Source of the DNA: an uncultured Gemmatimonadales bacterium
GTDB lineage: Bacteria > Gemmatimonadota > Gemmatimonadetes > Longimicrobiales > Gaopeijiaceae
Length of the DNA: 64,000 nt
Assembly: GCA_963809895.1 (NCBI GenBank)
Contig: CAWELD010000003.1
Coordinates: 1,152,001-1,216,000 of the forward strand
Direction: 5' to 3'
Positions 9,041-39,031 of the stretch are shown here, piece after piece. The notes beneath the pieces were generated by a model. That model was not told the origin of the DNA and did not search any database. It saw only the letters and a list, made by a program, of their open reading frames with translations. The translations under genes were made by a program, and so were the position numbers. Each line of letters begins with the position of its first letter. Positions within the stretch are counted from its first letter, which is position 1.

Positions 9041-9147
9041 CACCGGCGGTAGGGGCGTCCGCGCGCCCCCGCGTCGGGGCTACGAGACCGCCTCCCCGGA
9101 TTCGGGCATCCCAATGCAGGCGCGAGTCATCGTCCGAGGAGGCTACC

Positions 9148-11982: not shown

Positions 11983-12022
11983 CACTCGGCACCTCGGGTC
12001 ATGGCGCCCGAGAGCGGGTCCG

Positions 12023-12060
12023 CGGGGGGCGGCGTACCGACGCCGCCCCCCGTTGTCATT
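12023..12060 (+). terminator. Intrinsic terminator after first Ig lipoprotein
   Basis: 13-bp stem CGGGGGGCGGCGT / ACGCCGCCCCCCG, 4-nt loop, followed by TTGTCATT. Confidence 0.7.
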
Positions 12061-12228
12061 CCGACCCATCACCCACCCATGGCCGGCCCGCCGTGGGACA
12101 GCTTGTCACATGCCGCCGACGGAGCGCTCCCCATGAGAGGGCAGTCCGGCGGGTGTGCACCAGGCTTGTGGCGGCGTGCCTTGCTTGCCGCGGGTGCGAC
12201 AAATGCCGGATGCCCTACTCGGGCTGGG

Positions 12229-12243
12229 CGGCACGCCTCTCGC
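12229..12243 (+). promoter_or_regulatory. Putative sigma54 (-24/-12) promoter
   Basis: CGGCACG-CCTC-TCGC with exact GG-N10-GC spacing; about 85 bp upstream of the 12329 ATG. Confidence 0.5.
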
Positions 12244-12328
12244 CACCCCTGAATCCCGCGACCCCCGGGCACCTCGGAGCGAGACTGTCCGGCGGGGCAC
12301 CCATGAGAAGATCTCGGGAGGAGGGATC

Positions 12329-15316
12329 ATGAACACGCAGATTCGAACGCGTCCGAGCCCCAGGGCCTCGCCGACCGTAGCCGCGATGCGATGGGCGGTG
12401 ATTGCCGCTCTGGGTCTCGCCGCGGGCCTGGGCTGCAGCGATGACTCCAAGCCCGTCCAGCCCGTGCACGAGCATACCGTGGCCACCGTCTCGGTGGCGC
12501 CCAGCGCGCTCACCCTGAAGACGGGGCAGACGACCTTGCTCTCCGCCACGGCCCGCTGTGGGTGCGGCGCCCTGGTCGAGTCCACCGTCTCATGGACGAG
12601 CAACGCACCCTCCGTGGCCTCCGTGGACGAAGCCGGCACGGTCACCGGTATCGGGTTCGGGAGCGCGGTCATCACGGCCACCGCGGAAGGTGTCAGTGCC
12701 ACGAGCTTCCTGACCGTGGAGCCGCTCGGAACCATCGTCGGGCCGTCCGGCGGCACCATCGTGTCCACCGACGGCAACGCGGTATTGGAGATCCCGGCTG
12801 GAGCCTTGTCGGCGGCCACCGACATCACCGTCGTAAAGGTGGACGACGGCATGTTCGCGGACGATCCGTTCTACGTTGCCGGCACGGCGTATCAGCTCGG
12901 CCCGAACGGACTCCTGCTGCAGGAGCGGGCGCATCTGCGCATCCGCTTCGATCCCGATCAGGTGCCGGACGGCGCGCTGCACGAGCGGCTGCGCATCCGG
13001 GAGCGTGACCAGGACCAGAACCAGTGGCGCGAGACGCAGCAGAACCAGCTTCGCGCCCAGGAACACGTCGTGGAGGGCGACATACAGCGCCTGAGGATCC
13101 ACGCAGTGGTCGCGTTGGACCCGGTGGGAATCCCGGTGGCCACCGTGGAGGTGACGCCTCCGGAGTCCTCCATCGGGATGGGCGAGACGGTACAGCTCTC
13201 CGCCGCCATCCTGGACGAGCAGGGACTGCCCCTGGTGCGGAACGTCCACTGGAGCACCAGTGACGGCGCGGTGGCCACCGTGGACGGCGACGGGCTCGTC
13301 ACCGCCACCGGGTACGGCACCGCCGTGATCACGGCCGCGGCCGGCGGGCGAAGCGGCGACGCGACGGTGTCGGTGGTCGCCACGGGTACCCTCGTCGGAC
13401 CGGCCGGAGGAACCGTTGCCTCACCCGACGGCATGCTGGTGCTGGAGATCCCTGAAGGGGCCCTCGACGAGACCGTGGATGTCGTCGTGGAACGCCTGCA
13501 GGACGCCCTCTTCGTCGGCAATCCGCTGTACGTGACCGGCACCGCGTGGAATCTCGAGCCCGATCGGCTGCAACTGCGGGAGCGCGCTACCCTGCGCATC
13601 CACTACGACCCCAGCAACGTTCCGGCAGGCGTGAGCCACGATCGGCTCCGGCTCCGCGTCCGGGATCAGGATCAGAACCTGTGGCGCGCCATGGAGCGAC
13701 ATCGCCTCCGACTACAGGAACATGCGGTCGAGGCCGATATCGAGCACTTCTCCATGTACGCGGTGATCGCCGAGTCCGAGGAAGTACCGCCGCCGGTGGC
13801 GCTGGTTACGGTAAGCCCAGCCGTGGTGGAGCTGGACCCGGGCGAGACACTCCAGATGACCGCGTACGTCTACGACGCAGACGGGAACCTGCTGGACACG
13901 TCCGTGACGTGGTCCAGCGAGGACCCGTCCATCGCGACGGTGGATGGCAACGGTCTGGTCACCGGCGTGGCCGAGGGGAGCACGACCATCTCGGCCGCCG
14001 CGGGCGAGAAGAAGGGTCAGGGCTCGGTGAACGTCGGCTCCGGCGGACCTCCTCCCGCGTCGGTGACGGTGACCCCCGCCACGGCCTCGGTGCCGGTGGG
14101 CGGCAGCGTGCAGCTCTCCGCCGAGGTGCTGGACGACGACGGCAACGTCCTGGACGTGACCGTGACGTGGTCCAGCAGCAGCACCGGTGTTGCCACGGTG
14201 AGCTCCAGCGGCCTGGTCTCCGGCACGGCGCTCGGCGACGCCACGATCACCGCCAGGGTGAAGAACGTCTCGGGCACCGCATATGTCACGGTGGTGCCTC
14301 CCGTGTCGTCGGTGGTCATCGACGAGATCGGAAACGAGCCCCTGGAGGTGGGCCTGACGGTGCAGCTCAACGCCACGGCCTACGACCTCGGTGGACTCCC
14401 CGTGGACGCCGACATCGCGTGGAGCAGCAGCGATGAGGGAATCGCTACCGTGGATCAGGACGGCCTGGTGACCGGCCGTGGCCGCGGCACCGCCACCATC
14501 ACGGCGGCCGTAGGGACGGCGAGCGACGCGGTGAGCGTGAGGGTTGTCGGCGAGTCCACGGAGGGGTACGGCAACAACCTGTCCTGGCCCGTGATCTTTG
14601 CTGACGGGATCGGCATCACCGGCGTTGCGGTGACCGACGATCCGGGCATCCGTCCCCTGGCCACCGAGGAAGCGGTGGTCGACGCCCTGCCCTTCTTCTG
14701 GGAGGGCAACGTCCCGAACTACGCCGGCGTGTACTACGAGCAGCAGAGCTCGAACACCTGGGCAGCAGTCTGGGAGGACGGTACCGGACAACCGGAGTAC
14801 GAAACCCAGATCTACTGGGGTGACAACCTCACCCATCAGACCTGGAGCGCGTCCCGGCCCATCCGCGTGGAGCAGGCGCTCTACGCCACCGCCATCGGCA
14901 CCCGCACGGGCTACAGCATGACGTACCTGTACGGGGAGGGTCCCGAGGAGATGCAGGGGACCGACGGAAGCACCGCCGAGTTCATCCCCCTGATCTACAC
15001 CGTGGGACCGCAGCTCATCGTGGAGAAGCTCAGCGGAGCCGGTGGCTCGGTGGTCGCTACCGTCGTCGACGAGGCCGCCGGCAGCGAAGTGAACGTCGGC
15101 GGACGTGTCATCTACGGTTACAACCTCCAACTGAAGAACTGGACACCGCCCTCAGGGGTCACCAAGGACGGCTGGTATCGGCTCACGTTCGCCATCGCCA
15201 ACGGAGCCAACGTGGCCCTTTCCTCGGTGGGGAACGAAGGCGACGATCTCCTCTACCTGCCCGAGGTGAACGCGCAGAGGAACCTGAGCACGCTGGAGAT
15301 CTACATCGAGCCGTAG
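12329..15316 (+). CDS. Large lipoprotein with Big_2 repeats, two ZU5-like modules and a C-terminal 'GNNLS' domain
   Basis: GGAGGAGG RBS; lipobox LGC; Big_2 repeats; duplicated GP-x-GGT...LEIP-x-GAL modules; GNNLS domain paralogous to the upstream gene. Confidence 0.85.
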   Translation: MNTQIRTRPSPRASPTVAAMRWAVIAALGLAAGLGCSDDSKPVQPVHEHTVATVSVAPSALTLKTGQTTLLSATARCGCGALVESTVSWTSNAPSVASVDEAGTVTGIGFGSAVITATAEGVSATSFLTVEPLGTIVGPSGGTIVSTDGNAVLEIPAGALSAATDITVVKVDDGMFADDPFYVAGTAYQLGPNGLLLQERAHLRIRFDPDQVPDGALHERLRIRERDQDQNQWRETQQNQLRAQEHVVEGDIQRLRIHAVVALDPVGIPVATVEVTPPESSIGMGETVQLSAAILDEQGLPLVRNVHWSTSDGAVATVDGDGLVTATGYGTAVITAAAGGRSGDATVSVVATGTLVGPAGGTVASPDGMLVLEIPEGALDETVDVVVERLQDALFVGNPLYVTGTAWNLEPDRLQLRERATLRIHYDPSNVPAGVSHDRLRLRVRDQDQNLWRAMERHRLRLQEHAVEADIEHFSMYAVIAESEEVPPPVALVTVSPAVVELDPGETLQMTAYVYDADGNLLDTSVTWSSEDPSIATVDGNGLVTGVAEGSTTISAAAGEKKGQGSVNVGSGGPPPASVTVTPATASVPVGGSVQLSAEVLDDDGNVLDVTVTWSSSSTGVATVSSSGLVSGTALGDATITARVKNVSGTAYVTVVPPVSSVVIDEIGNEPLEVGLTVQLNATAYDLGGLPVDADIAWSSSDEGIATVDQDGLVTGRGRGTATITAAVGTASDAVSVRVVGESTEGYGNNLSWPVIFADGIGITGVAVTDDPGIRPLATEEAVVDALPFFWEGNVPNYAGVYYEQQSSNTWAAVWEDGTGQPEYETQIYWGDNLTHQTWSASRPIRVEQALYATAIGTRTGYSMTYLYGEGPEEMQGTDGSTAEFIPLIYTVGPQLIVEKLSGAGGSVVATVVDEAAGSEVNVGGRVIYGYNLQLKNWTPPSGVTKDGWYRLTFAIANGANVALSSVGNEGDDLLYLPEVNAQRNLSTLEIYIEP

Positions 15317-15383: not shown

Positions 15384-15839
15384 TCAGAAGCGCTCGCCCT
15401 TCGCTTCACGGATATGAGAGCCCACGGGGCGGATGCGCGTCCACATCCCCCAGAAGTAGGTGAGGATGGCCAGCACCTGCGATGTTCCCGCGGCGAGAAT
15501 CGCCCAGCGCAGCCAAGGCCACACGACGAAGGAGCGCGCAACCTCGCCCCCCACTCGCGCGGCGGTCGCCACTGCGAGGGTCCAGTACACCGCCGCCATC
15601 AGCCGGGGATCGTAGCGGGTGTCTCCCTTCTCGGCCCTGGGAAAGAGCCACAACGCCACGCCCAGGATCAGGAACATGACGAAACCGACCAGGATGGCGT
15701 GCGTGTGCGCGGAGCGCATGTAGGGCCCAGCGAACACCCCGTTGACCTCTCGCCGGTAGAGCATGACGAGTCCCAGTATCAGCCCGACGCCCAGGAACCC
15801 GATCCCCGTCTTGATGAAACGGCGTACCAACGTGTACAA
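15384..15839 (-). CDS. Four-TM membrane protein (heme-copper oxidase subunit I-like fragment family)
   Basis: GGAGG RBS with TTG start; four hydrophobic helices; SAHTH-x3-VGF and GVALWLFPR motifs. Confidence 0.7.
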   Translation of the reverse strand: MYTLVRRFIKTGIGFLGVGLILGLVMLYRREVNGVFAGPYMRSAHTHAILVGFVMFLILGVALWLFPRAEKGDTRYDPRLMAAVYWTLAVATAARVGGEVARSFVVWPWLRWAILAAGTSQVLAILTYFWGMWTRIRPVGSHIREAKGERF

Positions 15840-15999
15840 CGCTCACCTCCGTCCTCGCCGGAGCACGGCCCGAGACTGGCGCTCACCGGCGTTCTCTTAT
15901 TGATTTCCGGGACCGTGACGGCCCCCTCCGACCATCCCGTCGACGGTGACGCACCATCCCACCTCGGTCAACCACGGATTCCAAGCCGGAGGCTTCCAG

Positions 16000-16653
16000 A
16001 TGTCACGCAAGATGCCGCTTCTCCTCGCCGCCGCATTCGCCCTCGTCGTCGCGCCCGCCTCCGCTCAGCAACAAGGTCGCGGAGGCATGATGGGAGGCAT
16101 GGGAGGAATGGGAGAAGGGATGCAGGAAGGCATGATGGGGATGCTCCACGAGCACGGGGTCACTCCCGGGATCATGCTCCGCATCGCCGAGCCGCTGGGC
16201 CTCAGCGACGCGCAGGTGCAGCAGCTCCAATCGATCCAGAGCCGCGCCCGCGCCGACCACGATCAGCACATGGCCGCGAGCACGGCAGCCGAAGGGCACG
16301 CCAGCGAGCTCATGGCCGCCGAGCCCATGGACATGGACGCCTACCAGGCGGCACTTCAGGAAGCGGCCACGCACCACGTCATGGCTCAGGTGGCCATGAC
16401 CCGCAGCAGCGTGGACGCGCGGGCGGTGCTCACGCCCCAGCAGCGCACAACGCTGGACACCTCCATCGCCATCATGCACCTCATGAGCCCGGGCCAGGGG
16501 ATGATGGGCGGCGCGGGCGGAATGGGTGGCATGGCGGGGCATGGGCGGTGGCGGCAACTGAGTCACACCCGGCCGATCTCCACGCGCCACACCTCGGGGC
16601 CCTCCTCCAGGTACGTCCAGGTGAAGTGCCCCTCCTCTTCCGCCTGGAACTGA
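16000..16653 (+). CDS. Spy/CpxP-like periplasmic Met/His-rich protein
   Basis: GGAGG RBS; signal peptide; LGLSDAQ and VLTPQQR (LTxxQ) motifs; Met/Gly-rich termini. Confidence 0.75.
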   Translation: MSRKMPLLLAAAFALVVAPASAQQQGRGGMMGGMGGMGEGMQEGMMGMLHEHGVTPGIMLRIAEPLGLSDAQVQQLQSIQSRARADHDQHMAASTAAEGHASELMAAEPMDMDAYQAALQEAATHHVMAQVAMTRSSVDARAVLTPQQRTTLDTSIAIMHLMSPGQGMMGGAGGMGGMAGHGRWRQLSHTRPISTRHTSGPSSRYVQVKCPSSSAWN

Positions 16654-17156
16654 TACCAGAGGGGCTTGGGATCGTGGTCGTTGACCAGGGTGAACACCTC
16701 GCCGCTGGACAGCGACGCGAACAGGCGAAAGATGGTCGGATGCTTCTCCCGGGGCTCGACGACGCGCACATCGAGGACCATCTGTTCCTCTGAACGCGTC
16801 AGCCCCGGGAGATCGCCGACCGCCGCCACTCCCTCGTCGGCACTCCCGCGCCCGCCGTCGCATCGGGCCCGCGGCCTGGACACCTGCTTCGGATCGTAGA
16901 ACCACACGCGCCAGTCCTGCGGACCCAGCTCTTCGGTCCACGCCTTCAGCCCGAAGCCCGCCATGACGCTGTACAGGGGCACGGGATCGAAGATGGCGCG
17001 CACGCGCAGCACACCGTCGGGCGGCATCGACTGCCGAGCCGTCATGATGCGGTCGAACGGCTCCCGGCCGTTCATGAGATCCTCTCGCACGTCCACGTCG
17101 ACGAGTGCCGTGCCGGGGAGGTCGCGGAGGGCCTCGGGGATCACGGGCAGGGTCAT
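16563..17156 (-). CDS. Tandem DUF2249-domain protein
   Basis: DVRE...EPF..IM...FDPVPLY, then LDVR...KHPTIF...VNDHDPKPL...GPEVWRVEI; ATG overlaps the upstream stop. Confidence 0.85.
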   Translation of the reverse strand: MTLPVIPEALRDLPGTALVDVDVREDLMNGREPFDRIMTARQSMPPDGVLRVRAIFDPVPLYSVMAGFGLKAWTEELGPQDWRVWFYDPKQVSRPRARCDGGRGSADEGVAAVGDLPGLTRSEEQMVLDVRVVEPREKHPTIFRLFASLSSGEVFTLVNDHDPKPLWYQFQAEEEGHFTWTYLEEGPEVWRVEIGRV

Positions 17157-17473
17157 GGGTCCAACTCCTGAGTCTGTTGAATGAGTCCGGGATGCCACGG
17201 GGGATCGAAGACCAGCCGGGATTCGGCCGTGCCCACGCCGTCCACCGAAAGCGCGGAGCGGCGGATGCCCTCGCGGAGGTGGCTCTCCATGGGACATCCG
17301 GGCATGGTGAGCGTGTGGACGACTTCCACGCGGGCCGAGCCCGCGCCCTGGTCGGCCGTGACCACTACCGTCTGGATCAGCCCCAGCGTGACGATGTCCA
17401 GGCCGATCTCGGGATCGATGACGGTACGGAGCGCCTGCCACACGGCGCGCTCGATCTCGGCGGGGGCCCTCAT
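17153..17473 (-). CDS. DUF59 (SufT/PaaD-like) metal-sulfur cluster assembly factor
   Basis: ALRTVIDPEIGLDIVTLGLI, LTMPGCP, FDPPW; 3' part of ORF 17153..18550. Confidence 0.9.
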   Translation of the reverse strand: MRAPAEIERAVWQALRTVIDPEIGLDIVTLGLIQTVVVTADQGAGSARVEVVHTLTMPGCPMESHLREGIRRSALSVDGVGTAESRLVFDPPWHPGLIQQTQELDP

Positions 17474-18747
17474 CGAGAGCCCCCCAGGCCGACCCGAGCC
17501 AGTTGCAGAGCCATCACGGTGACGCCCGCACACAACAGCAGTGCCACGGCGCGCAGGGCCCCCACGGGAGCACCTGCCGCCAGGCAGGGCGGCAGCGCGA
17601 GGGCGGGGGCGGCGGTCATCGCCGCCGCAGCCCAGGCGACCCGCCGCGAATACAGCTCCGCCACGGTCGGCATGCGCTCCGTACCGAGCCGGGCCCCGAA
17701 TCGGTGAAACCAGGCGAGGAACGGGACGATGCGGTAGAGGTGTCCGGCCACGAATGGCGTGAACCCCGCCACGATGACCGCCGCCCCGTAGGCCTCGGCC
17801 CCGCCGGGATCGGCGGCACCGCGAGTCAGGGCGAACGGAGCCCACAGGAGCCCTCCGGCCAGGCCCACACCCCCGACGGCCACCAGCGTCATGCCCGGAT
17901 CCAGGTCGCGGCGACGTCGGTGCAGGAAGAAGAGGACGAGCTGCGCCAGGTACAGGCTCACGCCGGCGCCGCATACCAGCGCCGCCAGGCCGAGCCACAC
18001 GCCACCCGCGTGGTGCAGCAAGAGGGCGAGCACCAGCCCCCCGGTGACGAGCCGATAGGCCCAGAGCCCCGGCCATTCCGGTGCCCCGTGGCTCAACAGG
18101 AACATGGGCAGGAGACGCTGGGACACACCCACGACCACGAGGAGCACCCACCCCAACAGCGCCACGTGGAGGTGGAGGGTGAGGGCAAGAAGGCGATGCT
18201 CGCCCAGGTAGCCCCAGCGCAGATTTCCGCTCAGGGTGATACCGAGCAGGACGGCGATGATCAGGAACGCTCCCGCCACCGCCAGCGCCCGTCGGATGAG
18301 CCCGCCACGCGGCGCCCTCCCGAGAGTCCGAAAGAGGTTCGCGCTGAACAGGAGCAGCCCCAGCGTGACGAGGCCTGCGCCAGGCAGAAGTAGGATCGTG
18401 TCGCCGGTGGCCAACCCGGCCACCATGAGCGACACCCCCGGCACGTGCAGCGCGAGCGTCGCCCAGACCAGGATCGGCCAAGCCATCCCGACGCCCAGGG
18501 CGACCGGAATGAACTGATAGGCGGCACCCAGGATCGTGGTGGTGAGCCATCCCAGCGTGAAGAGATGGGTCACCGCCGCCACGCGCGGCGCCATGAAGGC
18601 TCCGGCGGCGAGCTCCGGCGAGATGAAGGCCAGCCCGGCCGAGCCGAGTGCGAGAAACGCCAGCGCCGCGGCGAAGTGGCTTCCGGGAACCCGGAAAGGC
18701 GGGGGCGGCGCCGAGGCCGGGCCGGCGCCCGGCGCGCCGCTGCTCAC
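17470..18747 (-). CDS. Multi-pass membrane protein with repeated His-helix motifs (DUF2249-operon associated)
   Basis: About 12 TM segments; THLFTLGW..GAAYQFIP, HLHVALLGW..GVSQRLLPMF, GHLYRIVPF. Confidence 0.75.
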   Translation of the reverse strand: MSSGAPGAGPASAPPPPFRVPGSHFAAALAFLALGSAGLAFISPELAAGAFMAPRVAAVTHLFTLGWLTTTILGAAYQFIPVALGVGMAWPILVWATLALHVPGVSLMVAGLATGDTILLLPGAGLVTLGLLLFSANLFRTLGRAPRGGLIRRALAVAGAFLIIAVLLGITLSGNLRWGYLGEHRLLALTLHLHVALLGWVLLVVVGVSQRLLPMFLLSHGAPEWPGLWAYRLVTGGLVLALLLHHAGGVWLGLAALVCGAGVSLYLAQLVLFFLHRRRRDLDPGMTLVAVGGVGLAGGLLWAPFALTRGAADPGGAEAYGAAVIVAGFTPFVAGHLYRIVPFLAWFHRFGARLGTERMPTVAELYSRRVAWAAAAMTAAPALALPPCLAAGAPVGALRAVALLLCAGVTVMALQLARVGLGGSR

Positions 18748-19106: not shown

Positions 19107-19631
19107 TCAGTCCCGGGACGCCTCCGGAAGCAGCCGCTCGACGACGACCACATCGCGCCATTCGCCGTCCAGACGGCCGTGGCGGTGGTAGACCCCCACC
19201 TCACGGAACCCGTGGCGGGCACAGAGCACGCGCGACGCCCGGTTCCCGGTGAAGATCCTCGCGACGATCTTCCAGAGGCCGGCCGAGGCACAGGCCTCGA
19301 TGAATGCGCTCATGAGCACACTGCCGACGCCGTGGCCACGGGCGTCCCGGCTCACGTACACCGAGAAGTCCACGATCCCGTCGTAGCACGCCCGGTTCCG
19401 ATACGCGAAGGCGGCGATCCACCCCTGGACCGCGCCGCCTCGAAGCGCCACCAGCACCGGACGGCGTGGATCCTCGAGCCAGCGCGCGACCTCCCATGCC
19501 TCCCGGGGCCGCGTCTCGAAGGTGGCCACCCGGTCGGCGATTCCTTCGTTGTAGATGCGCGTCATGGCATCGACGTGCTCCGGCCGGGCGGGTATCACCG
19601 CCCACGTGCCATTCATCATCCCGCCCCTCAC
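19107..19631 (-). CDS. GNAT N-acetyltransferase (phosphinothricin/ArsN1-like)
   Basis: IYNEGIADRVATFET, SVYV..ARGHGVG, GFREVG..HGRLDGEWRDV. Confidence 0.85.
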   Translation of the reverse strand: MRGGMMNGTWAVIPARPEHVDAMTRIYNEGIADRVATFETRPREAWEVARWLEDPRRPVLVALRGGAVQGWIAAFAYRNRACYDGIVDFSVYVSRDARGHGVGSVLMSAFIEACASAGLWKIVARIFTGNRASRVLCARHGFREVGVYHRHGRLDGEWRDVVVVERLLPEASRD

Positions 19632-20959
19632 GTCGGATCGTCGATCCCGTACTCCTTCATCTTACGCCAGAGTGTGGTGCGGCCCATGCCCAGAATCTCG
19701 GCGGCTCGCACTCGCACGCCGTCCGCCTCGCGCAGCGCCCTCACGATGGCGCTGCGCTCGTCCTCGTCGCCACCCTCGTGCCGGTAGCGCTCCTCCTCGC
19801 GCGGCGAGTCGCCCCCATCGCGCACACTCTGCGGAAGGTGATGCGCCTGGATCGAACCACCTTCGGCCCGGATCAACGCGCTCTCCAGCGCCGAGAAGAG
19901 CTCGCGGACGTTCCCGGGCCACCGGTGCGCCAGGAGCGTGCGCATGGCCAGGGGAGACAGCGAGGGCGGCCATCCCCCGCCGGCGCGCTGCCGCAGATAG
20001 TGCTCCACGAGCAGGGGGATGTCGCCCCGGCGCTCGCGGAGCGCGGGCATGTGGATCCGGAACACGTTGAGGCGGAAGAAGAGGTCCTCCCGGAGCCGCC
20101 CCACCTCCACGGCTTCTCCCAGGTCGCGATGGGTGGCCGCCACCAAGCGCACGTCCACGCGCACCGGACGGCTGGTTCCGAGGGGAACGACCTCCCGCTC
20201 CTGCAGCACGCGCAGGAGGCGCTGCTGGACCCCTGCCGACACGTCTCCGATCTCGTCCAGGAAGAGCGTGCCGCCGTGAGCGGCACGAAAATGACCGGCT
20301 CGTTCCTTCACCGCTCCGGTGAAGGCGCCGCGGACGTGCCCGAACAGCTCCGACTCCAGCACCCCCTCGGCCAGGGCCGCGCAGTTGACGGCCACGAAGG
20401 GACCCGACGAGTGCTCCGACAGCCGGTGCACCGCTCGGGCAGCGAGTTCCTTGCCGGTGCCGGTCTCACCGGTGAGCAGGACGGTGGTATCGGCGCGGGC
20501 CACCCGCCTGATTTCCTGAAACGTCTCCTCCATGACCGTCGAGCGGCCCACCATGCCCAGCTCCGCCCCCCCGTCGTCGCCGCCGCTCGGCTGGGGTCGA
20601 CGCCGCAGCAGGCCGTCCACGCGATCGAGCAGCACTTCCGGCTCCACCGGCTTGGTGAGGAAGTCGTCCACGCCGGAGTGGAGCGCCCGTACGGCGGAGT
20701 CCACGGTGCCGAACCCCGACACCATCAGCACCGGCGTGGCGCGACCCCGCGTGCGCAGCACCTCCACCACGTCGATCCCGTCGGGGCCGGGCATGCGGAG
20801 GTCCATGAGGATGAGGTCGAAGCGGCCCTCTTCCAGGGCGCGCACAGCCTCCGAGCCGTCGGCGGCTCCCACCACGACGTGACCTTCGCCCTCCAGGAGG
20901 GCCGCGGTGGAGAGCCTGAAGGCCCGATCGTCGTCTACGACGAGGATTCGTCCGGACAT
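19628..20959 (-). CDS. Sigma54-dependent response regulator (NtrC family)
   Basis: Receiver domain, GETGTGKE, GAFTGA, FLDEIG, WPGNVREL, Fis-type HTH. Confidence 0.95.
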   Translation of the reverse strand: MSGRILVVDDDRAFRLSTAALLEGEGHVVVGAADGSEAVRALEEGRFDLILMDLRMPGPDGIDVVEVLRTRGRATPVLMVSGFGTVDSAVRALHSGVDDFLTKPVEPEVLLDRVDGLLRRRPQPSGGDDGGAELGMVGRSTVMEETFQEIRRVARADTTVLLTGETGTGKELAARAVHRLSEHSSGPFVAVNCAALAEGVLESELFGHVRGAFTGAVKERAGHFRAAHGGTLFLDEIGDVSAGVQQRLLRVLQEREVVPLGTSRPVRVDVRLVAATHRDLGEAVEVGRLREDLFFRLNVFRIHMPALRERRGDIPLLVEHYLRQRAGGGWPPSLSPLAMRTLLAHRWPGNVRELFSALESALIRAEGGSIQAHHLPQSVRDGGDSPREEERYRHEGGDEDERSAIVRALREADGVRVRAAEILGMGRTTLWRKMKEYGIDDPT

Positions 20960-22683
20960 GGCGCGGCAGGAAGGTGGATGACGAAGCGGGCACCGGGACC
21001 GTCCTGACGGTTGGACGCCTCGATGCGGCCGCCGTGGGTGCGGACCAGCCCTTCGGCCGTGAACAGCCCCAGCCCGACGCCGTGCATGTCGCCCTTGGTG
21101 CTGAAGAAGGGATCGAAGACGCGGGACAGGGCCTCCTGCGGAATCCCCGGACCCCGATCCAGAACCTCGATGCGGGGGCCGTCGGCATCGCCGATGACCA
21201 CCTCGACGGGCCCCCCGTCGTTCGTGACCTCCTGGGCGTTCAGGATGAGGTTCAGCAGGACCTGCTTCAGGGCGTCCGGTGGCATGGCTGCCCCGAGGCC
21301 CTCGCCTCCGATGACCGATACTGAGGCGTGACCGTTTTCGGCACCCGCCCGGGCCAGGGAGGCCGTCTCGCGCGCCACCGCCCCCACATCGCAGGAATCC
21401 TCGTCGGACCCTCGCGGCCGGTGGAGATCCAGCATGCGCTCGGCCAGCTCGTGCATGCGCAGCAGCTCGTCCACCGCCATGTCGGCGAAGACACGGGCTT
21501 CGTCGCGCAGATCCCCGCTCCGGCGCACCACCTCCAGGCAGTTGCGCACGCTGGCCACCGGATTGCGGATCTCGTGCGCCAGCTGCTGGAGGACCCGCCC
21601 CGTGGCCGAGGCCCGCTCCCGCTGCACCAGCTCGGCCTGGAGGAGGGAGAGCCGCTCCTGCCGGTCCGCCAACTCGCGGTTGGCCCGTTCCAGCTCCGCC
21701 AGGCGGGACGCCAGCGTCTGACGCATGGCCATGAAGGCGTCGGCCACGCGGCGCACTTCTTTCACGCGGGACCGAACCAGGGGAGCGTCCTCGTCACCCG
21801 CGGCGAAACGGTCGGCCGCAGCCGCCAGCGAGGCCACGGGCCGGGACAGACCCATGGCGAACAGGATCCCCACGGCCAGGGCCACCAGCGCCGCGAGGGC
21901 CGTGCTCACCACGGCGGTCCGTCTCAGCACCGGAAGCACCGCCAACTCGGTGTCCTGGTCCCGGAGGAAAGCCACCGTGCCGGCATCCACCGCGGACACC
22001 GCCGCCAGGTAGGTATGGCCGGCGGCCTGGACGCTCTGCACGTCTTCAGGGTGCTCGGGCACCGCGAGCTCCCGGGCCAGGACCTCGGCGGTGGCGGGCG
22101 GAAGGGTGGTGGCCGCCACCGCGCCCGCGTCGTCGCGAAGCACGATGTCCGACCGGGTCAGACCCGCGAGAGCCGTGGCCTCGTCGGCTCCCCAGGCGGT
22201 GCTTCCTCCGGCGGCGCCGAGCCAGGTGTCGCCGTCGGCAATCGGCGCCAGCGCCAACAGGTGGAGCTGCCCGCCACCCGCCACCACCTCCACCGGCATC
22301 TCTCCGCGGCGCGTGGCCGCCAGCATCGGCTCGGGGATCTCCACGGGCGTCATCAAGGCGCTGCCCTCGGGCCCCACCAGGACCGGATCCTCTCCAACAG
22401 CGCGCGCGGCATCCACGAGCACCCGCTCGGCATCCGCACCGTCACCCCGGGCCAGCGCCGACGCCAGCTCGGGCATGTGCGCCATCTCCTTCGCGTGCAT
22501 CATGCGCACGTCGCGCACCGACGCCATGCGGTCGTCCAGGACCATGTGGGCCCGGCCGAGGTCCTCCCTGGCCCGTTGGATCAGGGCATCGCCCAGCCGC
22601 CGCTCCACCAGCAGGCCGGCGGGAATCAGGCCCGTTGCCAGAACGGCCAGGATCAGGAAGATGAGCGCGCGTCTGAGAGACAT
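20935..22683 (-). CDS. Membrane sensor histidine kinase (periplasmic domain + HAMP)
   Basis: Two TM segments, AHEIRNP H-box, NLILNA, DRGPGI, FDPFFSTK, GLGL. Confidence 0.93.
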   Translation of the reverse strand: MSLRRALIFLILAVLATGLIPAGLLVERRLGDALIQRAREDLGRAHMVLDDRMASVRDVRMMHAKEMAHMPELASALARGDGADAERVLVDAARAVGEDPVLVGPEGSALMTPVEIPEPMLAATRRGEMPVEVVAGGGQLHLLALAPIADGDTWLGAAGGSTAWGADEATALAGLTRSDIVLRDDAGAVAATTLPPATAEVLARELAVPEHPEDVQSVQAAGHTYLAAVSAVDAGTVAFLRDQDTELAVLPVLRRTAVVSTALAALVALAVGILFAMGLSRPVASLAAAADRFAAGDEDAPLVRSRVKEVRRVADAFMAMRQTLASRLAELERANRELADRQERLSLLQAELVQRERASATGRVLQQLAHEIRNPVASVRNCLEVVRRSGDLRDEARVFADMAVDELLRMHELAERMLDLHRPRGSDEDSCDVGAVARETASLARAGAENGHASVSVIGGEGLGAAMPPDALKQVLLNLILNAQEVTNDGGPVEVVIGDADGPRIEVLDRGPGIPQEALSRVFDPFFSTKGDMHGVGLGLFTAEGLVRTHGGRIEASNRQDGPGARFVIHLPAAPCPDESSS

Positions 22684-22846
22684 GGATTCACGGGAATGTT
22701 GAACGCTGCCGATGCTTCAGCCTCGGCTTCACAGCGGGACGGTGCAAGTTCCGCACACAGCCGACCGGAAGGGGCGGGAGCGCTGGGAATGGCGCAGCGA
22801 CACGCCACGAAGCCCGCTGGGCGGCGAATCCGCGGCCCTCGCGGCG

Positions 22847-22906
22847 CGTTTCACGAAACGGCCTCCACGTTCCGTGACACGTTCCACGGAACGGCGTCAG
22901 ACGTGC
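22847..22906 (+). promoter_or_regulatory. Three CGTTYC-N2-GRMACG dyads plus a weak sigma54-like GG-N10-GC element
   Basis: CGTTTCACGAAACG (22847), CGTTCCGTGACACG (22868), CGTTCCACGGAACG (22880); CGGCGTCAGACGTGC at 22892-22906. Confidence 0.5.
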
Positions 22907-23014
22907 CTTTTCGACGGACCAGGTGTACGGACTGGTCACTGTTGCCGTCCTGCGCTCCAGCGTGATCGGCGACGGAGACGGCAGGGCGGCTCCCCCGAAC
23001 CAGAGGAGGAGTCG

Positions 23015-24436
23015 ATGACCGCCCTCACCCTGCTCTCGCTTCTGGGCCTGAGCGCCTCCCCGGCCTGGGCCGGTGCCGCCGCGCCTGCGCCGACCACGGC
23101 CGAGGCCCGAGTGACCCGCTATCTCCACCGTCTGTCGGTCGAAACCGGCCGCGCCGTCGTCGCCCCGTCGACACCGATCCCCAGCTTCTCCCGCCAGACC
23201 GGGCTGGCCTGCACCGCGTGCCATTCCACGTTCCCACAACTCAATGCCTTCGGGCGGCTGTTCAAGATGAACGGCTATACGCTGGCGGCTCAGCAGACCA
23301 TCCAGGTCCAGGATTCCGGCAAAGCCGCCTCGCTTCGTCTGGACCTGGTCCCGCCCGTGTCTGCCATGGTGATCTCGTCGCTGACCTCGATACGGCGAAG
23401 CGTGCCCGGACAGCAGAACGGGTCCACGGCGTTCCCCCAGGAGCTGGGACTGTTCATCGGTGAAGCCATCACGCCCAGGCTCGGGACCTTCCTGCAACTG
23501 ACCTACGACCCCGCCGAGGGAGGCGTGAGCATCGACAACGCGGACATTCGGTTCGCGAACCAGACCTCGGTGGGGAGCGTCGGGCTCCTCTACGGGGTCA
23601 CCCTGAACAACTCGCCCACCGTCCAGGACGTCTGGAACAGCACTCCGGTGTGGGGCTATCCGTTCACCGGCTCCGACGTGGCGCCGGCCCCCATGGCGGC
23701 CACGCTGATCGACGGAGGCCTGGGCCAGCGGGTCGCAGGGCTCGGTGCCTATGGGCTCTGGAACAGCCTGCTCTACACCGAGTTCAGCGTCTACCGTTCG
23801 GCGTTCCAGGGCGGTCCCGACCCCGTCGATGCCAGTGCCGAAGACGCCATCCACGGCGTCGCTCCGTACTGGCGCGTCGCGATCCAACGGCGGGTGGGCC
23901 GCCAGCAGCTCATGATCGGAACCTACGGGCTCCACGCGCGCCTGGTGCCCGCCGGCTTCGCGGGTCCCTATGACCGCTACACCGACATCGCGTTGGATGC
24001 GCAGCTCGACCGTCCGATGCACGGCGGGGGCAGCCTGACGGCACACGCGACATGGATCCACGAGCGCCGGAGGCTTACCGCGACGGCTCTCGCAGGTGGG
24101 GCGGAGCGAGCCCGGAACACTCTGCAGACGGCCCGGGTCGACGCCACCTGGTATCCCGGTCGACGGATCGGAGGAAGCCTGGGGTACTTCACGACCTGGG
24201 GCGACCGCGATCCCCTGCTCTACCCAACGGGCGACTTCTCCGGCAGCGCCACGGGCAGCCCGGACAGCAGCGGTCTGGTGGCTCAGCTGTCGTTCATGCC
24301 GTGGCTCAATACGCGCCTCGGCGTCCAGTACGTGGCCTACACGCGCTTCAACGGCGCGCGCCGCGACTACGACGGAAGCGGGCGCAACGCCAGCGACAAC
24401 GACGCCCTCTACCTCATGTCGTGGTTCGTCTTCTGA
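23015..24436 (+). CDS. cyc2: Cyc2-type fused monoheme cytochrome c-porin (outer membrane)
   Basis: GAGGAGG RBS; signal peptide; PSFSRQTGLACTACHSTFPQLNAFGRLFKMNGY; NNSPTVQDVWN; beta-strand-rich body ending SWFVF. Confidence 0.85.
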   Translation: MTALTLLSLLGLSASPAWAGAAAPAPTTAEARVTRYLHRLSVETGRAVVAPSTPIPSFSRQTGLACTACHSTFPQLNAFGRLFKMNGYTLAAQQTIQVQDSGKAASLRLDLVPPVSAMVISSLTSIRRSVPGQQNGSTAFPQELGLFIGEAITPRLGTFLQLTYDPAEGGVSIDNADIRFANQTSVGSVGLLYGVTLNNSPTVQDVWNSTPVWGYPFTGSDVAPAPMAATLIDGGLGQRVAGLGAYGLWNSLLYTEFSVYRSAFQGGPDPVDASAEDAIHGVAPYWRVAIQRRVGRQQLMIGTYGLHARLVPAGFAGPYDRYTDIALDAQLDRPMHGGGSLTAHATWIHERRRLTATALAGGAERARNTLQTARVDATWYPGRRIGGSLGYFTTWGDRDPLLYPTGDFSGSATGSPDSSGLVAQLSFMPWLNTRLGVQYVAYTRFNGARRDYDGSGRNASDNDALYLMSWFVF

Positions 24437-24455
24437 ACCCGCTGCCGGGTCGGTC

Positions 24456-25976
24456 TCAGCCCCCCGACCCGGCGTCCTCCTCCGCCAGGACGCTGCGCTT
24501 GCGTCCGTACCCGAGGTAGATGACGGCGCCCACGGCGAGCCAGACCACGAAGCGGACCCAGGTGACCGTGGGCAACTGGACCATGAGGTAGACGCACGCA
24601 GCCACCGCCAGGAGGGGCGTGACGGGCACCCACGGCACCTTGAACGGGCGCTCGCGACCGGGCTCGCGGTAGCGCAGCACCAGCACGCCCAATGAGACCA
24701 GAACGAAGGCGAAGAGCGTGCCGATGTTGGTCAGTTCCACCATCTCGTTGATGTTGGCGAAGGCCGCCAGGCCCGCCACGAACACGCCCGTGAGAATCGT
24801 GGTGACATGAGGCGTGTGGAAGCGCGGATGAACCTTGCTCGCCCACTTCGGGAGCAGTCCGTCCCGCCCCATGGAGAAGAAAATGCGCGGCTGACCGTAC
24901 TGGAAGACCAGCAGCACCGAGGTCATGGCCACCACCGCTCCAGCCGAGATGAGCGTCTGCGAGACCGCCAGCAGCCGGGGGCTGCCCCCGGACAGCTCGA
25001 GCGCCGTCACCATGGGCTCCGCCGTGCCCAGCTCGTTCCACGGGGCCATCCCCGTCATGACCAGCCCCACCAGCAGATAGAGCACGGTACAGATCACCAG
25101 GCTCATGAGGATGCCGAAGGGCATGCTCGTCTGGGGATCCTTCGTCTCTTCCGCCGCCGTGGAGACCGCATCGAACCCGATGTAGGCGAAGAAGATGATG
25201 GCCGCCGCCGAACCGATCCCCTTCATGCCGTTGGGCGCGAAGCCGCCGTGTGACGTCAGGTTCCCCGGCCTGAACAGGGTGGCACCCACCAGCAGGAAGA
25301 AGCCGATGACGGCGAGCTTCAGAATCACGATGGCGAAGTTGAACCGGCTGGATTCCCGGGCGCCCCGGACGAGAAGCACCGTGAGCGCCGCCACGATGAG
25401 CACGGCCGGCAGGTTGATGATGATGGGAAAGCCCCCGATGTGGGGAGCCGATGCCATGGCGTCGGCCATCGGACCGCCCCCTCCGACGGCGCCGGCCGCG
25501 GTTCGATAGTCGGTGGCCAGCCAGGATGGAATGTGGATTCCGGCGTGACTCAGCAGGTCCACGAAGTACCCCGACCACGAGATCGCCACCGCCACGTTCC
25601 CGATGGCGTACTCGATGATGAGGTCCCAGCCGATGATCCAGGCCACCCACTCGCCCAGCGCCGCATAGGCGTAGGTGTACGCCGATCCGCTGACAGGCAC
25701 CATGGCGGCGAACTCCGCGTAGCAGAGCGCGGCCAGCCCACAGGCAACGGCGGTGAGCAGCATGGAGATCACGATGGCGGGGCCGGCCCCGAGGTGCTGT
25801 GAGCCTCCGGCGATGGCCGTGCCGGTCGTGGCGAAGATCCCGGCTCCGATGATCGCACCCACGCCCAGGAAGGTGAGGTCCCACCGACCCAGTTCCCTGC
25901 TGAGCCCACCCGATCGGGAGGCCTCCTCGCGCAGTCGGTCGATGCTCTTGCGGCGGCGTAGGTCGGTGATGGCCAT
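24456..25976 (-). CDS. APC-family amino acid permease
   Basis: GVGAIIGAGIF, GSAYTY, GWDLIIEY, FFAYIGFDAVST. Confidence 0.93.
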   Translation of the reverse strand: MAITDLRRRKSIDRLREEASRSGGLSRELGRWDLTFLGVGAIIGAGIFATTGTAIAGGSQHLGAGPAIVISMLLTAVACGLAALCYAEFAAMVPVSGSAYTYAYAALGEWVAWIIGWDLIIEYAIGNVAVAISWSGYFVDLLSHAGIHIPSWLATDYRTAAGAVGGGGPMADAMASAPHIGGFPIIINLPAVLIVAALTVLLVRGARESSRFNFAIVILKLAVIGFFLLVGATLFRPGNLTSHGGFAPNGMKGIGSAAAIIFFAYIGFDAVSTAAEETKDPQTSMPFGILMSLVICTVLYLLVGLVMTGMAPWNELGTAEPMVTALELSGGSPRLLAVSQTLISAGAVVAMTSVLLVFQYGQPRIFFSMGRDGLLPKWASKVHPRFHTPHVTTILTGVFVAGLAAFANINEMVELTNIGTLFAFVLVSLGVLVLRYREPGRERPFKVPWVPVTPLLAVAACVYLMVQLPTVTWVRFVVWLAVGAVIYLGYGRKRSVLAEEDAGSGG

Positions 25977-30538: not shown

Positions 30539-30742
30539 CCTTGCCTGTCTCACTGGAATGCGGGGATTGTGGACCGGTTCGGTGGGCTGTGAAACGGTCG
30601 AGTGGGATCCAACGACGGTGGACCCGCAGGCGGTCGCGCGCCAGCCCCCGAGTGTTCTCTTCGACGCACACCTCCCATCTTTTCGGAGAGTCACCGGCCC
30701 CGGGTCGGGCGATCACGCATCGAAGGAGCGAACGTACCGGTC

Positions 30743-31423
30743 ATGCGCATCCTGGTGGTGGAAGACGACCGCAAGGTCGCCAGCTTCCTCGAGAAGGGCC
30801 TCCGCGAAGAGGGATACTCCGTGGATGTCGCCTCCGACGGAATCGAGGGGGCCATGCGGGCCCTGGTCTACGACTACGACGCGCTCCTCCTCGACATCAT
30901 GCTGCCGGGCAAGTCGGGCCTGGAGATCGTGCGCGAGCTGCGCGCCAAGGAGCGCACCGTACCCATCCTCCTCCTCACCGCCCGGGACACCCGCGAGGAC
31001 ATCGTCACCGGCTTGGACGCCGGGGCCGACGACTACCTGACCAAGCCCTTCGGATTCGACGAGCTGCTGGCCAGGATACGGGCACTCCTGCGGCGCGGCG
31101 GTGCCGAGCGGCCCGACCGCCTTCTGTACGGCGACATCGAGCTCGATCGCATGAAGCACGTGGCCAGCCGCCGGGGCGAGCGGCTGGATCTCACGCCCAA
31201 GGAGTTCCAGCTCCTGGAGTTCTTCATGCTGAATCCCGAACGGGTGGTGCGGCGGACCGAGCTCCTGGAGAAGGTCTGGGACCTCAGCTTCGACCCCATG
31301 AGCAACGTGGTCGACGTCCACGTCGCCCATCTGCGCCAGAAGCTCCGGGAGGGCGACGGCGATCCCCTCGTCCACACGGTTCGTGGTGTCGGATACATCT
31401 TCCAGCGGGGAGAGGACGGGTGA
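30743..31423 (+). CDS. OmpR-family heavy-metal response regulator (CusR-like)
   Basis: [35 protein letters not shown]; upstream of cus genes. Confidence 0.9.
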
Positions 31424-32838
31424 GACGGTCCTTTCGCTTCCAACTCGCCGCGCGCTTCACGGCATCCATGGGCGTGGCCGTGGTGGCCATCGCCGTGGCC
31501 AGCGTGCTCACGCTGCGCGCGGTTCTGGACCGCGAGCTCAACGCCAGCATTCTCAACGTCGCCTCCATCGAGGCCGCCTCGGTGACCGACTCGCCCGACG
31601 GAGAGATGCATTTCCACGAGTGGCAGCTCACTCCCGAAGAGGCGGCGTCGGTGCGGGACCTGATCCGCTACGCCCAGGTGTGGGGCGTGTCCGGCGCGAG
31701 CCTGCTCCGGAGCCAGTTCATGCGCCAGGATCTCCCGCTGGATCGCTCCGCCCTCGACCAGGCGGCGGCGGGTGAGTTGGTCTGGCGGGAGCAGAGCTTC
31801 CAGGGCGTGCCCATCCGCTCCCTGTACTACCCGCTTGCGCGCTTCGGGCCCGCCCACGACAGGCACATCCTCCAGGTGGCCGCGCCCCTCGTGGCCCGCC
31901 ACGAGATGGTGCGCCGCCTCACCCTGTTCTTCGCCGCCATGGTCGTTCTGGTCACGGCTGCGTCGTTCCTGGGAAGCTGGTGGCTCGCCGGTCGCACGGT
32001 GCGCCCCGTCCACGAGATCATCGATCAGGCGGAGGCCATCGGCGCAGGATCGCTGGACCGCCGTATCGGCGCCTACGCCGACACCCAGGAGTACCGTCGG
32101 CTGGTCGAGGTCCTCAACACCATGCTCTCGCGCATCCAGTACGCCTTCGACGCCCAGCGCCGCTTCACCGCCGACGCGAGCCACGAGCTCAGATCGCCGC
32201 TCACGGTCATCAGGGGCGAGATCGAGCTGGCGCTTCGCCGGCAGCGATCCCCCGAGGAATACCGGCGGGTGCTCGAGAGCAGCCTCGAAGAGGTGGTGCG
32301 CCTGTCGCGGATCACCGAGGACCTCCTGACCCTGGCGCGCTCGGATGCGGAGACCCCTCGCACCACCGGCGAGCCGGTGCAATGCGCCGAGGTCGCCCGC
32401 CGCATCCTCGGCCGGTTCCAGGGCGCCGTCCAGGACAAGGGACTCGATCTGGCGGTGGACATCCCTCCCGAGCTCGACGCTCCGCTGGACCCCGTCCTCC
32501 TCAGCCAGGTGATCTGGAACCTCGTGGACAACGCCGTGAAGTTCACACCCGCCGGCGGACGCATCGGCGTGACCTTGTCTCACGACGATGGCGTCGTGGA
32601 ATTCTCGGTCACCGACAGCGGTCCGGGCCTCGGGCCCGAGCCGGCCCGGGTCTTCGACCGCTTCTTCCGGGCCGACGAGGTGCGCACGCCAGGTGAGGAG
32701 ACCTCCGGCACGGGGCTCGGACTGGCCATCGTGCGCGCTCTGGTCGAGGGACAGGGCGGTGAGGTGGGCGCCGAGAATCTGCCCGAGGGTGGTGCCCGGG
32801 TGTTCGCGCGGCTTCCGGTGGAGGTGGTCGCAGCGTAG
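31420..32838 (+). CDS. Sensor histidine kinase (CusS-like)
   Basis: GTGA overlap; [28 protein letters not shown]; periplasmic MHFHEW. Confidence 0.9.
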
Positions 32839-32888
32839 GTGCCTGCGTTTTTCGCCGTGGGGAACACCCCCACAAGGCGTGAAGCCAT

Positions 32889-32916
32889 CTTCATACGAGC
32901 GTAACCGAGTCTTCAC
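32889..32916 (+). promoter_or_regulatory. 11-bp-period direct repeats (OmpR-type box) upstream of cusCBA
   Basis: CTTCAT (32889), CGTAAC (32900), CTTCAC (32911). Confidence 0.5.
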
Positions 32917-32970
32917 GAAGGCTCCCGTAGCTTGATCGCAATCGTACGGGACCATCTCTCGAGAAGAACG

Positions 32971-34299
32971 ATGATCGCTCGAACCCCCATGTTGCTGCTC
33001 GGCCTCGTGGCGGTCGCCTCCACCCGACCCGTCCTGGCTCAGGCACCGCCGTCCGCTCCCCCGACCGGCGCACAGATCCGGGAGCCCCTCCCCCTCGATC
33101 GCGTGCTCGATCTCCTGGCCCAGCGGAATCCCCGGTTGCGGGCCATGGAAGCGTCGGCCTCTGCCGCGGCCAGCCGGGTCGACGACGCCTCCACGCTACC
33201 GGATCCGACGCTCCAGTTGGGCATCATGAACTTCGGCGTCCCCGACCTGAACGCGGACATGCCGGCCTCCATGGCACCGTCGGTCCAGCTCATGCAGCTG
33301 GTGCCCTTTCCCGGAAAGCTCTCGCTCCGGGGGGAGATCGCCGAACACGGCCAGGGGATGGCGTACGCCGCGGCCGACGAAGCGTGGTGGTCCGTCCGGG
33401 CCGAGGCATCCGGCCTGTACTACGACCTCTACGCGCTGGACCATCAGCTCGAGGTCATGGGGAGTACCCTCCAGCTCCTCAAGGACTTCCAGACCGTCGC
33501 CAAGGCCCTGTACGCATCCGGCACCGGACGCCAGGCCGACGTGCTGCGCGCCGATGTCGAAGTCGCGCGCATGGACGGGGAGATCCGGCGGTTGGAAGCA
33601 TCGCGCGTGGCGCTCTCCGCCCGCCTGAACGGCCTGCTCGACCGGCCGGCCGACACACCGGTGGGCAGCCCGGTGCTCGGAGCCCTGCCCCTGACGACCC
33701 CGGACGCCGACACGCTGCGAGCCTGGGCCGACGAGAGCCGGCCACTCCTGCATGGTGGTCGACTCGGGGTCGAGCAGGCCGAAGCACGCGTGGCGTTGGC
33801 ACGCAAGGAAATCTGGCCGAATCTCACGTTCGGGCTGAGCTACGGTCAACGGGACGCGGGGATGGGGCTCGAGCGCATGGGGAGTGCCATGGTCGGGTTC
33901 AGCCTCCCCGTTCACGCGGGACGCCGCCAACTCGCCGCGCGCGACGAGGCGAAGGCCCTGCACCTGATGGCCGAGTCCGAGCTCGGCGGGGCCCGCGCAC
34001 AGGTGGACGCCCGCATCGGCGAGCTCCTTGCCGAACTCGATCGGGCCCGGACCCTCACGCGCCTCTACCGCGACGAGGTGCTCCCCGAGGCTCACACCAC
34101 CGTCGAGTCGGCCCTCTCCTCGTACCGCGTGGGCGAGGTGGACTTCATGACGCTGGTCGACGCACAGATGACCGTGAACCGCTACGAAGGCGAGCTCTAC
34201 CGCCTCCTGGCCGACTACGGAAAGGCCGTCACGGCGCTGGAATCCACCGTGGGCCGCCCCCTTCCCCCATCCGACGCGATCCTCGCGGAGGACCGATGA
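32971..34299 (+). CDS. TolC-family outer-membrane efflux protein (CusC-like)
   Basis: Signal peptide; LPDP, PFPGKL, YRVGEVDF; first gene of the RND operon. Confidence 0.88.
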   Translation: MIARTPMLLLGLVAVASTRPVLAQAPPSAPPTGAQIREPLPLDRVLDLLAQRNPRLRAMEASASAAASRVDDASTLPDPTLQLGIMNFGVPDLNADMPASMAPSVQLMQLVPFPGKLSLRGEIAEHGQGMAYAAADEAWWSVRAEASGLYYDLYALDHQLEVMGSTLQLLKDFQTVAKALYASGTGRQADVLRADVEVARMDGEIRRLEASRVALSARLNGLLDRPADTPVGSPVLGALPLTTPDADTLRAWADESRPLLHGGRLGVEQAEARVALARKEIWPNLTFGLSYGQRDAGMGLERMGSAMVGFSLPVHAGRRQLAARDEAKALHLMAESELGGARAQVDARIGELLAELDRARTLTRLYRDEVLPEAHTTVESALSSYRVGEVDFMTLVDAQMTVNRYEGELYRLLADYGKAVTALESTVGRPLPPSDAILAEDR

Positions 34300-35570: not shown

Positions 35571-35580
35571 GGGCTGGATC

Positions 35581-38952: not shown

Positions 38953-39031
38953 CGGCGGCGCGCCGGCGACGGATCGTTCAGCAATGAGGTGGAGGTTGCC
39001 CCTCGATCGCGACCACGAAAAAGAGCACACC

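Follow-up and report, generated by a model that had tools for sequence, protein, structure and literature searches.

A lone, cluster-2 cyc2-like gene in a Gemmatimonadota genome and its candidate role in Fe(II) oxidation

The window analysed here, a 64,000-nt stretch of contig CAWELD010000003.1 (assembly GCA_963809895.1, an uncultured Gemmatimonadales bacterium), carries a cyc2-like gene at 23015–24436 (+), open throughout and encoding a 473-aa fused monohaem cytochrome c and porin with Phe as its last residue; the assignment draws on the frame, motif, fold model, similarity and tree. The start is placed at the ATG at 23015 because a Shine–Dalgarno-like GAGGAGGAG precedes it (23003–23011, +) and close homologs share the same MTALTL beginning, and a longer frame from an upstream ATG at 22712 was rejected on these grounds. 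A probable Sec signal peptide (residues 1–19; 23015–23071, +), read by eye and matching the conserved start of the homologs, has a hydrophobic core and A-W-A at 17–19, the basic n-region being absent. An N-terminal extension of ~35 residues with a predicted helix at residues 29–44 follows (23072–23176, +; model and alignment), and then the Cyc2 cytochrome motif (23177–23242, +), comprising IPSFSRQT (residues 55–62), CTACH (66–70; 23210–23224) and PQL (74–76) in the context PSFSRQT-GLA-CTACH-STF-PQL-xxFGRxFKxNGY. CTACH is the sole CxxCH of the protein and is invariant in 111 of 111 alignment rows. The pattern PxFxR[QK][TY]..CxxCH matches a single one of the 46,388 six-frame ORFs of the genome, cyc2 itself, and a genome-wide search found no second Cyc2, so the gene is single copy; its GC content (0.70) is like that of the genome.

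Residues 115–472 (23357–24430, +) are predicted to form a 16-stranded beta-barrel: AlphaFold2, run with the 111-row alignment, returned 16 long beta strands (mean pLDDT 84, pTM 0.80), and the top Foldseek matches of the model are outer-membrane porins and channels, with OprP (2o4v) at E 2.6e-8. Sequence searches of Pfam, NCBIfam and the PDB gave no matches, an uninformative result for the first two because rus-operon Cyc2 also scores nothing there, and for the third because, according to a 2026 review, no Cyc2 structure has so far been solved (PMC13741234). In a search of sequencing runs, 15 contained 5–37% of the sampled words, none as much as half, with one RNA run at 12%.

Cyc2 proteins have been defined by a CXXCH, an upstream AXPXFAR[Q/K][T/Y], a downstream PXL, a minimum length of 365 residues and a porin of 16 strands resembling OprO/OprP, with OprP named as the template for the porin part (Keffer et al. 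2021; PMC8406198). In the query, the single N-terminal CXXCH is the CTACH at 66–70; PIPSFSRQT upstream keeps the core PxFxRQT with two substitutions, the first A to P and FAR to FSR, FSR being the majority form of the clade (95/111 rows); P74-Q-L76 lies four residues past the CXXCH, its P and L invariant; the length is 473 residues; and a C-terminal 16-strand porin is predicted by the AlphaFold2 model and the Foldseek porin matches. A sequence-only reading of this DNA had proposed a Cyc2-type cytochrome–porin with a single CTACH inside the family motif, a barrel-type body and a terminal Phe, and is borne out on these points by the translation, the predicted fold and full-length similarity to rus-operon Cyc2, with which both segments likened there to Acidithiobacillus Cyc2 do align.

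Reference proteins were taken from metagenome contigs picked with a short motif, giving seven loci. In these, cyc2 is followed by a dihaem cytochrome, plus cup-, cox- and rus-like genes where the contig extends; because one of them, L133, was confirmed by PDB search to carry rusticyanin (E 1e-103) and cytochrome c552 (1h1o; E 9e-122), the seven are taken to be Cyc2 of the Acidithiobacillus type. Aligned over 492 columns with one of these rus-operon proteins, from an operon with rusticyanin and cytochrome c552/Cyc1, the query shows 32% identity (E 3e-61). In a common alignment, identity is 32.9–35.1% to the seven rus-operon proteins, in agreement with the 26.7–35.2% published for pairs within cluster 2 (PMC8406198), and 16.4–23.8% to 27 Zetaproteobacteria and 15.6–21.1% to seven FARKY-type proteins, two groups whose cluster labels rest on published descriptions (PMC7029218, PMC13741234), not on published alignments.

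The cluster phylogeny that had been suggested as a check places the query with cluster 2: in a quick tree of 93 of the 129 rows (the frameshifted L017 and L036 and 34 further near-family rows being left out, and plasmid rows L080 and L142 missed by the motif filter), the query, the seven rus-operon proteins and Caballeronia, Ralstonia, Ideonella and Methylocystis plasmid proteins form one branch (SH-aLRT 98). In AU tests on 29 rows, however, placing the clade with cluster 1 was not rejected (p 0.29), nor was placing it with the FARKY group (p 0.28), and the branch leading to Acidithiobacillus Cyc2 is long (1.36). Among relatives from cultured organisms with a name, the nearest, those of Caballeronia and Ralstonia (39–41% identity), are closer than any characterised iron oxidase. 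Judged on its sequence, the protein is a cluster-2 Cyc2, an assignment for which the tree alone, given the AU alternatives, is weak.

The family is widespread: scoring 8,000 candidates gave 3,618 homologs, the top 120 of them 53–97% identical; a full-length protein 97% identical to the query is present in another assembly, and Gemmatimonadota supply both the nearest named homologs and the nearest Atlas clusters. A pattern search of species genomes gave 597 matches, of which 575 were confirmed and 79 loci kept; sorted by hand on their titles, these comprise 51 Gemmatimonadota and 28 other loci, mostly Bacteroidota and Ignavibacteria, and the clade turns up often in records from Bacteroidales, Ignavibacteria and Calditrichaceae. 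Even sampling of the phylum found a full-length relative (E 1e-100 or better) in 51 of 300 other genomes, a count that includes one unpublished genome (G233), distributed as 51/227 in other orders of the class, 0/58 in the same order and 0/15 in other classes. Among 40 near relatives none carries a full-length Cyc2, and seven have weak N-terminal matches only. Because full-length matches are absent from these 40 relatives and 58 same-order genomes, against 51 of 227 in other orders, cyc2 was probably gained laterally in the query's lineage, the simplest reading of the distribution.

Cyc2 has been widely annotated in marine Gemmatimonadota, an annotation from which the direction of electron flow is described as not readable (PMC11316326), Gemmatimonadota MAGs with cyc2 are listed in two further studies (PMC9769843, PMC10367259), and rus-like clusters have been reported in Gemmatimonadetes (bioRxiv 10.1101/2020.03.01.968255). 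The surprise implied by the sequence-only reading is therefore not supported, the gene being common in the phylum and already in print; the query is an ordinary member of a large, already reported Cyc2 clade. Several further cases were seen alongside: a record titled Zetaproteobacteria (L058; G041:C86) carries, next to a trihaem cytochrome, a cluster-2 Cyc2 with 46% identity to the query, which could be a transfer or mis-binning, a full-length match being found in none of 40 other Zetaproteobacteria genomes; a plasmid deposited as Acidithiobacillus ferrooxidans (L080; CP084173.1) carries a Cyc2-like gene that scores the same as Acidiphilium plasmid genes, differs from rus-operon Cyc2 and is followed by a c-type cytochrome; and tandem pairs of cyc2 homologs occur in G257:C36 (L148) and in L005.

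At the query locus cyc2 stands alone between, on one side, a divergent sensor histidine kinase gene (HAMP, HisKA, HATPase; 20935–22683, −) with a sigma-54-dependent response regulator gene (receiver, AAA+, Fis HTH; 19628–20959, −) and, on the other, a convergent amino-acid permease gene, the end of which is overlapped by a perfect 10-bp hairpin just past the cyc2 stop (24444–24473), a possible terminator without a U-run. The cytochrome c4, cupredoxin and oxidase genes linked to cyc2 in rus-operon-like loci are absent here. No other c-type cytochrome or oxidase gene was found within the 64-kb window, and the nearest Pfam-confirmed cytochrome CxxCH ORF lies ~151 kb away, in agreement with the earlier remark that no partner is adjacent.

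Such isolation is usual in the phylum. Neighbour counts were made with profiles built from the loci themselves, one member per family being Pfam-confirmed and the loci not being independent; read within these limits, cyc2 has a class I cytochrome c gene no more than 2.5 kb away at 24/28 non-Gemmatimonadota and 17/51 Gemmatimonadota loci (12/31 of those fully flanked), so that 19 of the 31 fully flanked Gemmatimonadota loci have no neighbouring cytochrome. A Rieske and cytochrome b pair is near cyc2 at 10/28 and 3/51 loci, respectively, multicopper or NirK-like proteins at 10/79 and USP proteins at 13/79. At the Rieske-linked non-Gemmatimonadota loci (L030, L032, L043, L046, L047, L051, L067, L074, L075 and L077) the cytochrome b is often fused to cytochrome c domains and a monohaem cytochrome c is mostly also linked, an arrangement that fits a compact membrane-to-surface chain running in either direction. 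Co-inheritance of the kinase and regulator with cyc2 was considered and rejected, their best matches near cyc2 homologs being only 22–43% identical and their true orthologs in the genus sitting without cyc2.

The wider window includes a gene cluster at 15384–18747 (−) for a tandem DUF2249 protein, a DUF59 protein, a 425-aa membrane protein that matched no family and a small COX1/NnrS-like membrane protein; at five near-identical loci, homologs of this small protein (56–57% identity) are encoded next to cyc2 homologs. Two adjacent large lipoprotein-like genes at 9004–15316 (+) have Ig-like (Big_2) repeats and a related C-terminal domain starting GNNLSxPxIFAxG. A GNAT acetyltransferase gene directly behind the sigma-54 regulator (19107–19631, −) scores above the NCBIfam cut-off for ArsN1 family A; a metal-handling block at 30740–42221 comprises a two-component pair, TolC/CusB/CusA-type efflux, CopC, CopD and DUF411; and a P-type ATPase and two CBS-pair proteins are encoded at 51635–54328, 43887–44423 and 48701–49282, with similar genes near cyc2 homologs at a few loci.

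An electron route from Cyc2 is available in principle elsewhere in the genome. The suggested search for periplasmic cytochromes, ACIII and oxidases found unlinked candidates for each, and the earlier statement that the route is unexplained is thus overstated, the genome having unlinked class I cytochromes, cbb3 and caa3 oxidases, an ACIII-like complex, NirK and NosZ. CcoN, CcoO, CoxA, CoxB, NirK and clade II NosZ are above curated NCBIfam cut-offs; a QrcB/ActB-like complex with a pentahaem subunit, below the cut-offs, was read as ACIII from gene order. A Rieske/cytochrome b pair, 15 ORFs with four or more CxxCH and three matches to cytochrome c assembly genes are also present. Two class I cytochromes are the best genome matches to cytochrome families that flank cyc2 elsewhere: C3:51043-51987 (E 6e-26) and C3:619427-620224 (E 2e-16; no Pfam match at 1e-5). 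Neither RuBisCO nor acetyl-CoA synthase was found in the 95% complete genome, so that iron would be extra energy for an organic-carbon feeder and not a basis for autotrophy.

Iron-binding sites have been predicted in Acidithiobacillus Cyc2 at H119/D137/D138 and Y262/D308 (Jiang et al.; bioRxiv 10.1101/2021.03.22.436458), and a 2026 review credits Su et al. (2025) with mutagenesis confirming Y262/D308 and D137/D138 (PMC13741234). In reference protein L135 all of these positions hit the right residue types once 31 signal residues are removed. By alignment, the counterparts of the central site are Q161, D174 and N175 (23495–23539, +) and those of the outer site are Y285 and D324 (23867–23986, +), both kept; three of the five proposed residues (Y285, D324 and D174) are therefore retained and the other two differ across the clade (Q161 for H, N175 for D), with three of the four residues that the review describes as mutagenesis-backed (PMC13741234) present in the query. 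Among the 88 other cluster-2 rows Q161, D174 and Y285 occur in all 88, D324 in 83 and N175 in 82. Met118 (23366–23368, +), present in 111/111 rows of alignment A1 and in 83/88 other cluster-2 rows, is replaced by Phe in all seven Acidithiobacillus rows. Its alternation with the conserved S116 and S122 on strand 1, used here in place of coordinates, suggests that it faces the lumen near the haem, where it may be the sixth haem ligand; for the characterised Cyc2s only one predicted axial ligand is listed in the review (PMC13741234).

The explanation preferred here, to which we give about an even chance, is that this cluster-2 Cyc2 oxidises dissolved Fe(II) and passes the electron to a periplasmic cytochrome encoded elsewhere. 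By analogy with the family (PMC8406198, PMC13741234), the protein would be exported and haem attached at C66/C69/H70, the haem domain would form the periplasmic plug of the barrel, and Fe2+ would enter the pore past Y285/D324 and D174. Judging by genome content only, the electron could then pass to a class I cytochrome, C3:619427-620224 and C3:51043-51987 being candidates, and from there to the cbb3 or caa3 oxidase or, under oxygen shortage, to NirK/NosZ; electrons from iron would supplement the energy of an organic-carbon feeder and would not support autotrophy. Several observations count against an Fe(II) oxidase: the changed central site, the closer relatives in Caballeronia and Ralstonia, the long Acidithiobacillus branch, the AU alternatives that stand alongside a large tree in its quick version, and the Rieske/cytochrome b neighbours, which are compatible with flow in either direction; no sigma-70-type promoter for cyc2 was found. 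The authors of the family definition themselves caution that large parts of clusters 2 and 3 lack verification (PMC8406198).

A rival reading is a general single-electron exchange pore of heterotrophs, serving another soluble partner (chelated iron, humic quinones or another metal) or working as an outward reductase, with Met118 as sixth ligand and Q161/N175 altering potential and specificity; we regard this as unlikely, if still credible. It would account for the clade-wide changes of H to Q and D to N and for a Met that is Phe in Acidithiobacillus, and it draws on the frequency of the clade in Bacteroidales, Ignavibacteria and Calditrichaceae, often beside Rieske/cytochrome b, and on an annotation that, as described for marine Gemmatimonadota, cannot tell direction (PMC11316326). 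Yet Y285, D324 and D174 are kept; Zetaproteobacteria Cyc2s, in a part of the alignment that is unsure, also lack the Acidithiobacillus residues while Cyc2PV-1 oxidises Fe(II); outward transfer could be served by the genome's multihaem clusters; and the placement of Met118 near the haem comes from strand alternation.

A different role, which ranks as improbable, would tie the gene to its divergent neighbours: an envelope oxidant-stress regulon under the sigma-54 kinase/regulator, shared with a Met-rich lipoprotein, a cytochrome b and an MsrP-like enzyme, in which Cyc2 removes Fe(II) before Fenton chemistry or supplies repair reductant. Its basis is a pair of palindromic boxes CGTTYCACGRAACG, 33 nt apart (22847–22893), likely but putative sites of the adjacent sigma-54 activator. 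The strict 12-mer from the box has five genome matches, and the pair recurs in the 5.3 Mb only at C4:220826-220871, before an operon for a Met-rich lipoprotein, a cytochrome b561-type protein and a molybdopterin (MsrP-like) enzyme, and at C3:2897196-2897242, before a gene for a lactonase-like lipoprotein; three Markov control genomes had no paired box, under a weight matrix trained on the same sites, which weakens the regulon case. Of 200 further genomes from the order, one has the strict pair; the single 14-mer was found in 7 of 300 genomes. Kinase orthologs are present in 6 of 19 genus relatives, with a similar box nearby in five of the six, and sigma-54 activator sites can act in both directions.

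Other observations count against such a role. In four genus relatives the box lies ahead of a gene oriented towards the kinase, with a sigma-54 site 128–136 nt from the first box, and one of these genes encodes a Spondin_N domain; no cyc2 was found at the kinase loci of the genus relatives, and the loose form of the box lies upstream of cyc2 homologs in 1 of 97 regions. Called with a sigma-54 consensus, sigma-54-like sites lie 128–137 nt from the first box at the relatives' loci and at the two other boxed genome sites. At the query locus, a weak kinase-facing site (22743–22759, −) keeps this distance and has a good -12 element, whereas the cyc2-facing site is too close to the ribosome site and its -12 element is poor; neither scores above background. 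The paired boxes most likely serve the divergent kinase operon, and box control of cyc2 is possible. As a separate observation, the CGTTYCACGRAACG pair travels with the sigma-54 kinase/regulator pair in the query genome and at L177–L181 and L183, preceding genes for MsrP-like, spondin-like and lactonase-like envelope proteins, and fasciclin genes lie near three of the box-bearing kinase loci in genus relatives; together with a sigma-54-like site ~130 nt on, it is a candidate small envelope-stress regulon.

A bolder combination, also improbable, would make the heterotroph branch of cluster 2 (Gemmatimonadota, Bacteroidota, Ignavibacteria and Burkholderiales) a functionally distinct Cyc2, its haem having His/Met ligation through Met118 and its central site being Q/D/N; such a protein would not be a respiratory Fe(II) oxidase and would here have come under a sigma-54 oxidant-stress regulon shared with the MsrP-like operon; if so, metagenome surveys that count cluster-2 genes of heterotrophs as iron oxidisers miscount. 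That cyc2 arrived laterally and is now an idle passenger, its frame intact but its expression low or a working partner missing from the genome, is very unlikely: absence of the full-length gene from 40 relatives, no adjacent partner, no recognised promoter and a region rich in accessory metal and stress genes would suit it, but the intact frame, good ribosome site, genome-like GC, near-identical protein in another assembly and the majority of lone copies at fully flanked Gemmatimonadota loci do not.

One among thousands of homologs, the query gene alone adds little; it is useful as a case on which to test whether heterotrophs that carry cyc2 oxidise iron. The clade occurs in about one-sixth of the sampled genomes of an abundant phylum: if its members are oxidases, a large group of lithoheterotrophic iron oxidisers is added, and if they are not, a widely used marker for such oxidisers is lost. 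The mapping of Q161, N175 and M118 provides specific substitutions for assay.

Compared with the rus-operon Cyc2 of Acidithiobacillus ferrooxidans (UniProt B7JAQ7; PMC13741234), the query shares one CxxCH in a PxFxRQT...PxL motif, a 16-strand barrel (predicted here) and the counterparts of Y262, D308 and D137, and it is 32% identical end to end to the metagenomic rus-operon reference; it differs in H119 to Q, D138 to N and Phe to Met118, in ~35 extra N-terminal residues that Acidithiobacillus Cyc2 lacks, in a locus without the cyc1-cup-cox-rus operon and in a genome in which RuBisCO was not found. Cyc2PV-1 of Mariprofundus ferrooxydans (cluster 1), for which Fe(II) oxidation at neutral pH has been demonstrated, has the same architecture and N-terminal motif (PMC8406198), whereas Zetaproteobacteria homologs align at the first 50–150 profile positions only, at ~20% identity, and form a separate branch. 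The rus-like clusters of Gemmatimonadetes are reported to include an oxidase operon (bioRxiv 10.1101/2020.03.01.968255), unlike the query locus. The FARKY-type motif marks cluster 3, and FARKY proteins of the query's relatives are 16–21% identical on a separate branch, Cyt572 of Leptospirillum itself not being among the tree's rows; Cyt572 and cluster 3 share with the query the fused cytochrome–porin. The putative Cyc2 homologs of Gemmatimonadota MAGs (PMC11316326, PMC9769843, PMC10367259), compared at family level, belong to the same family and phylum as the query.
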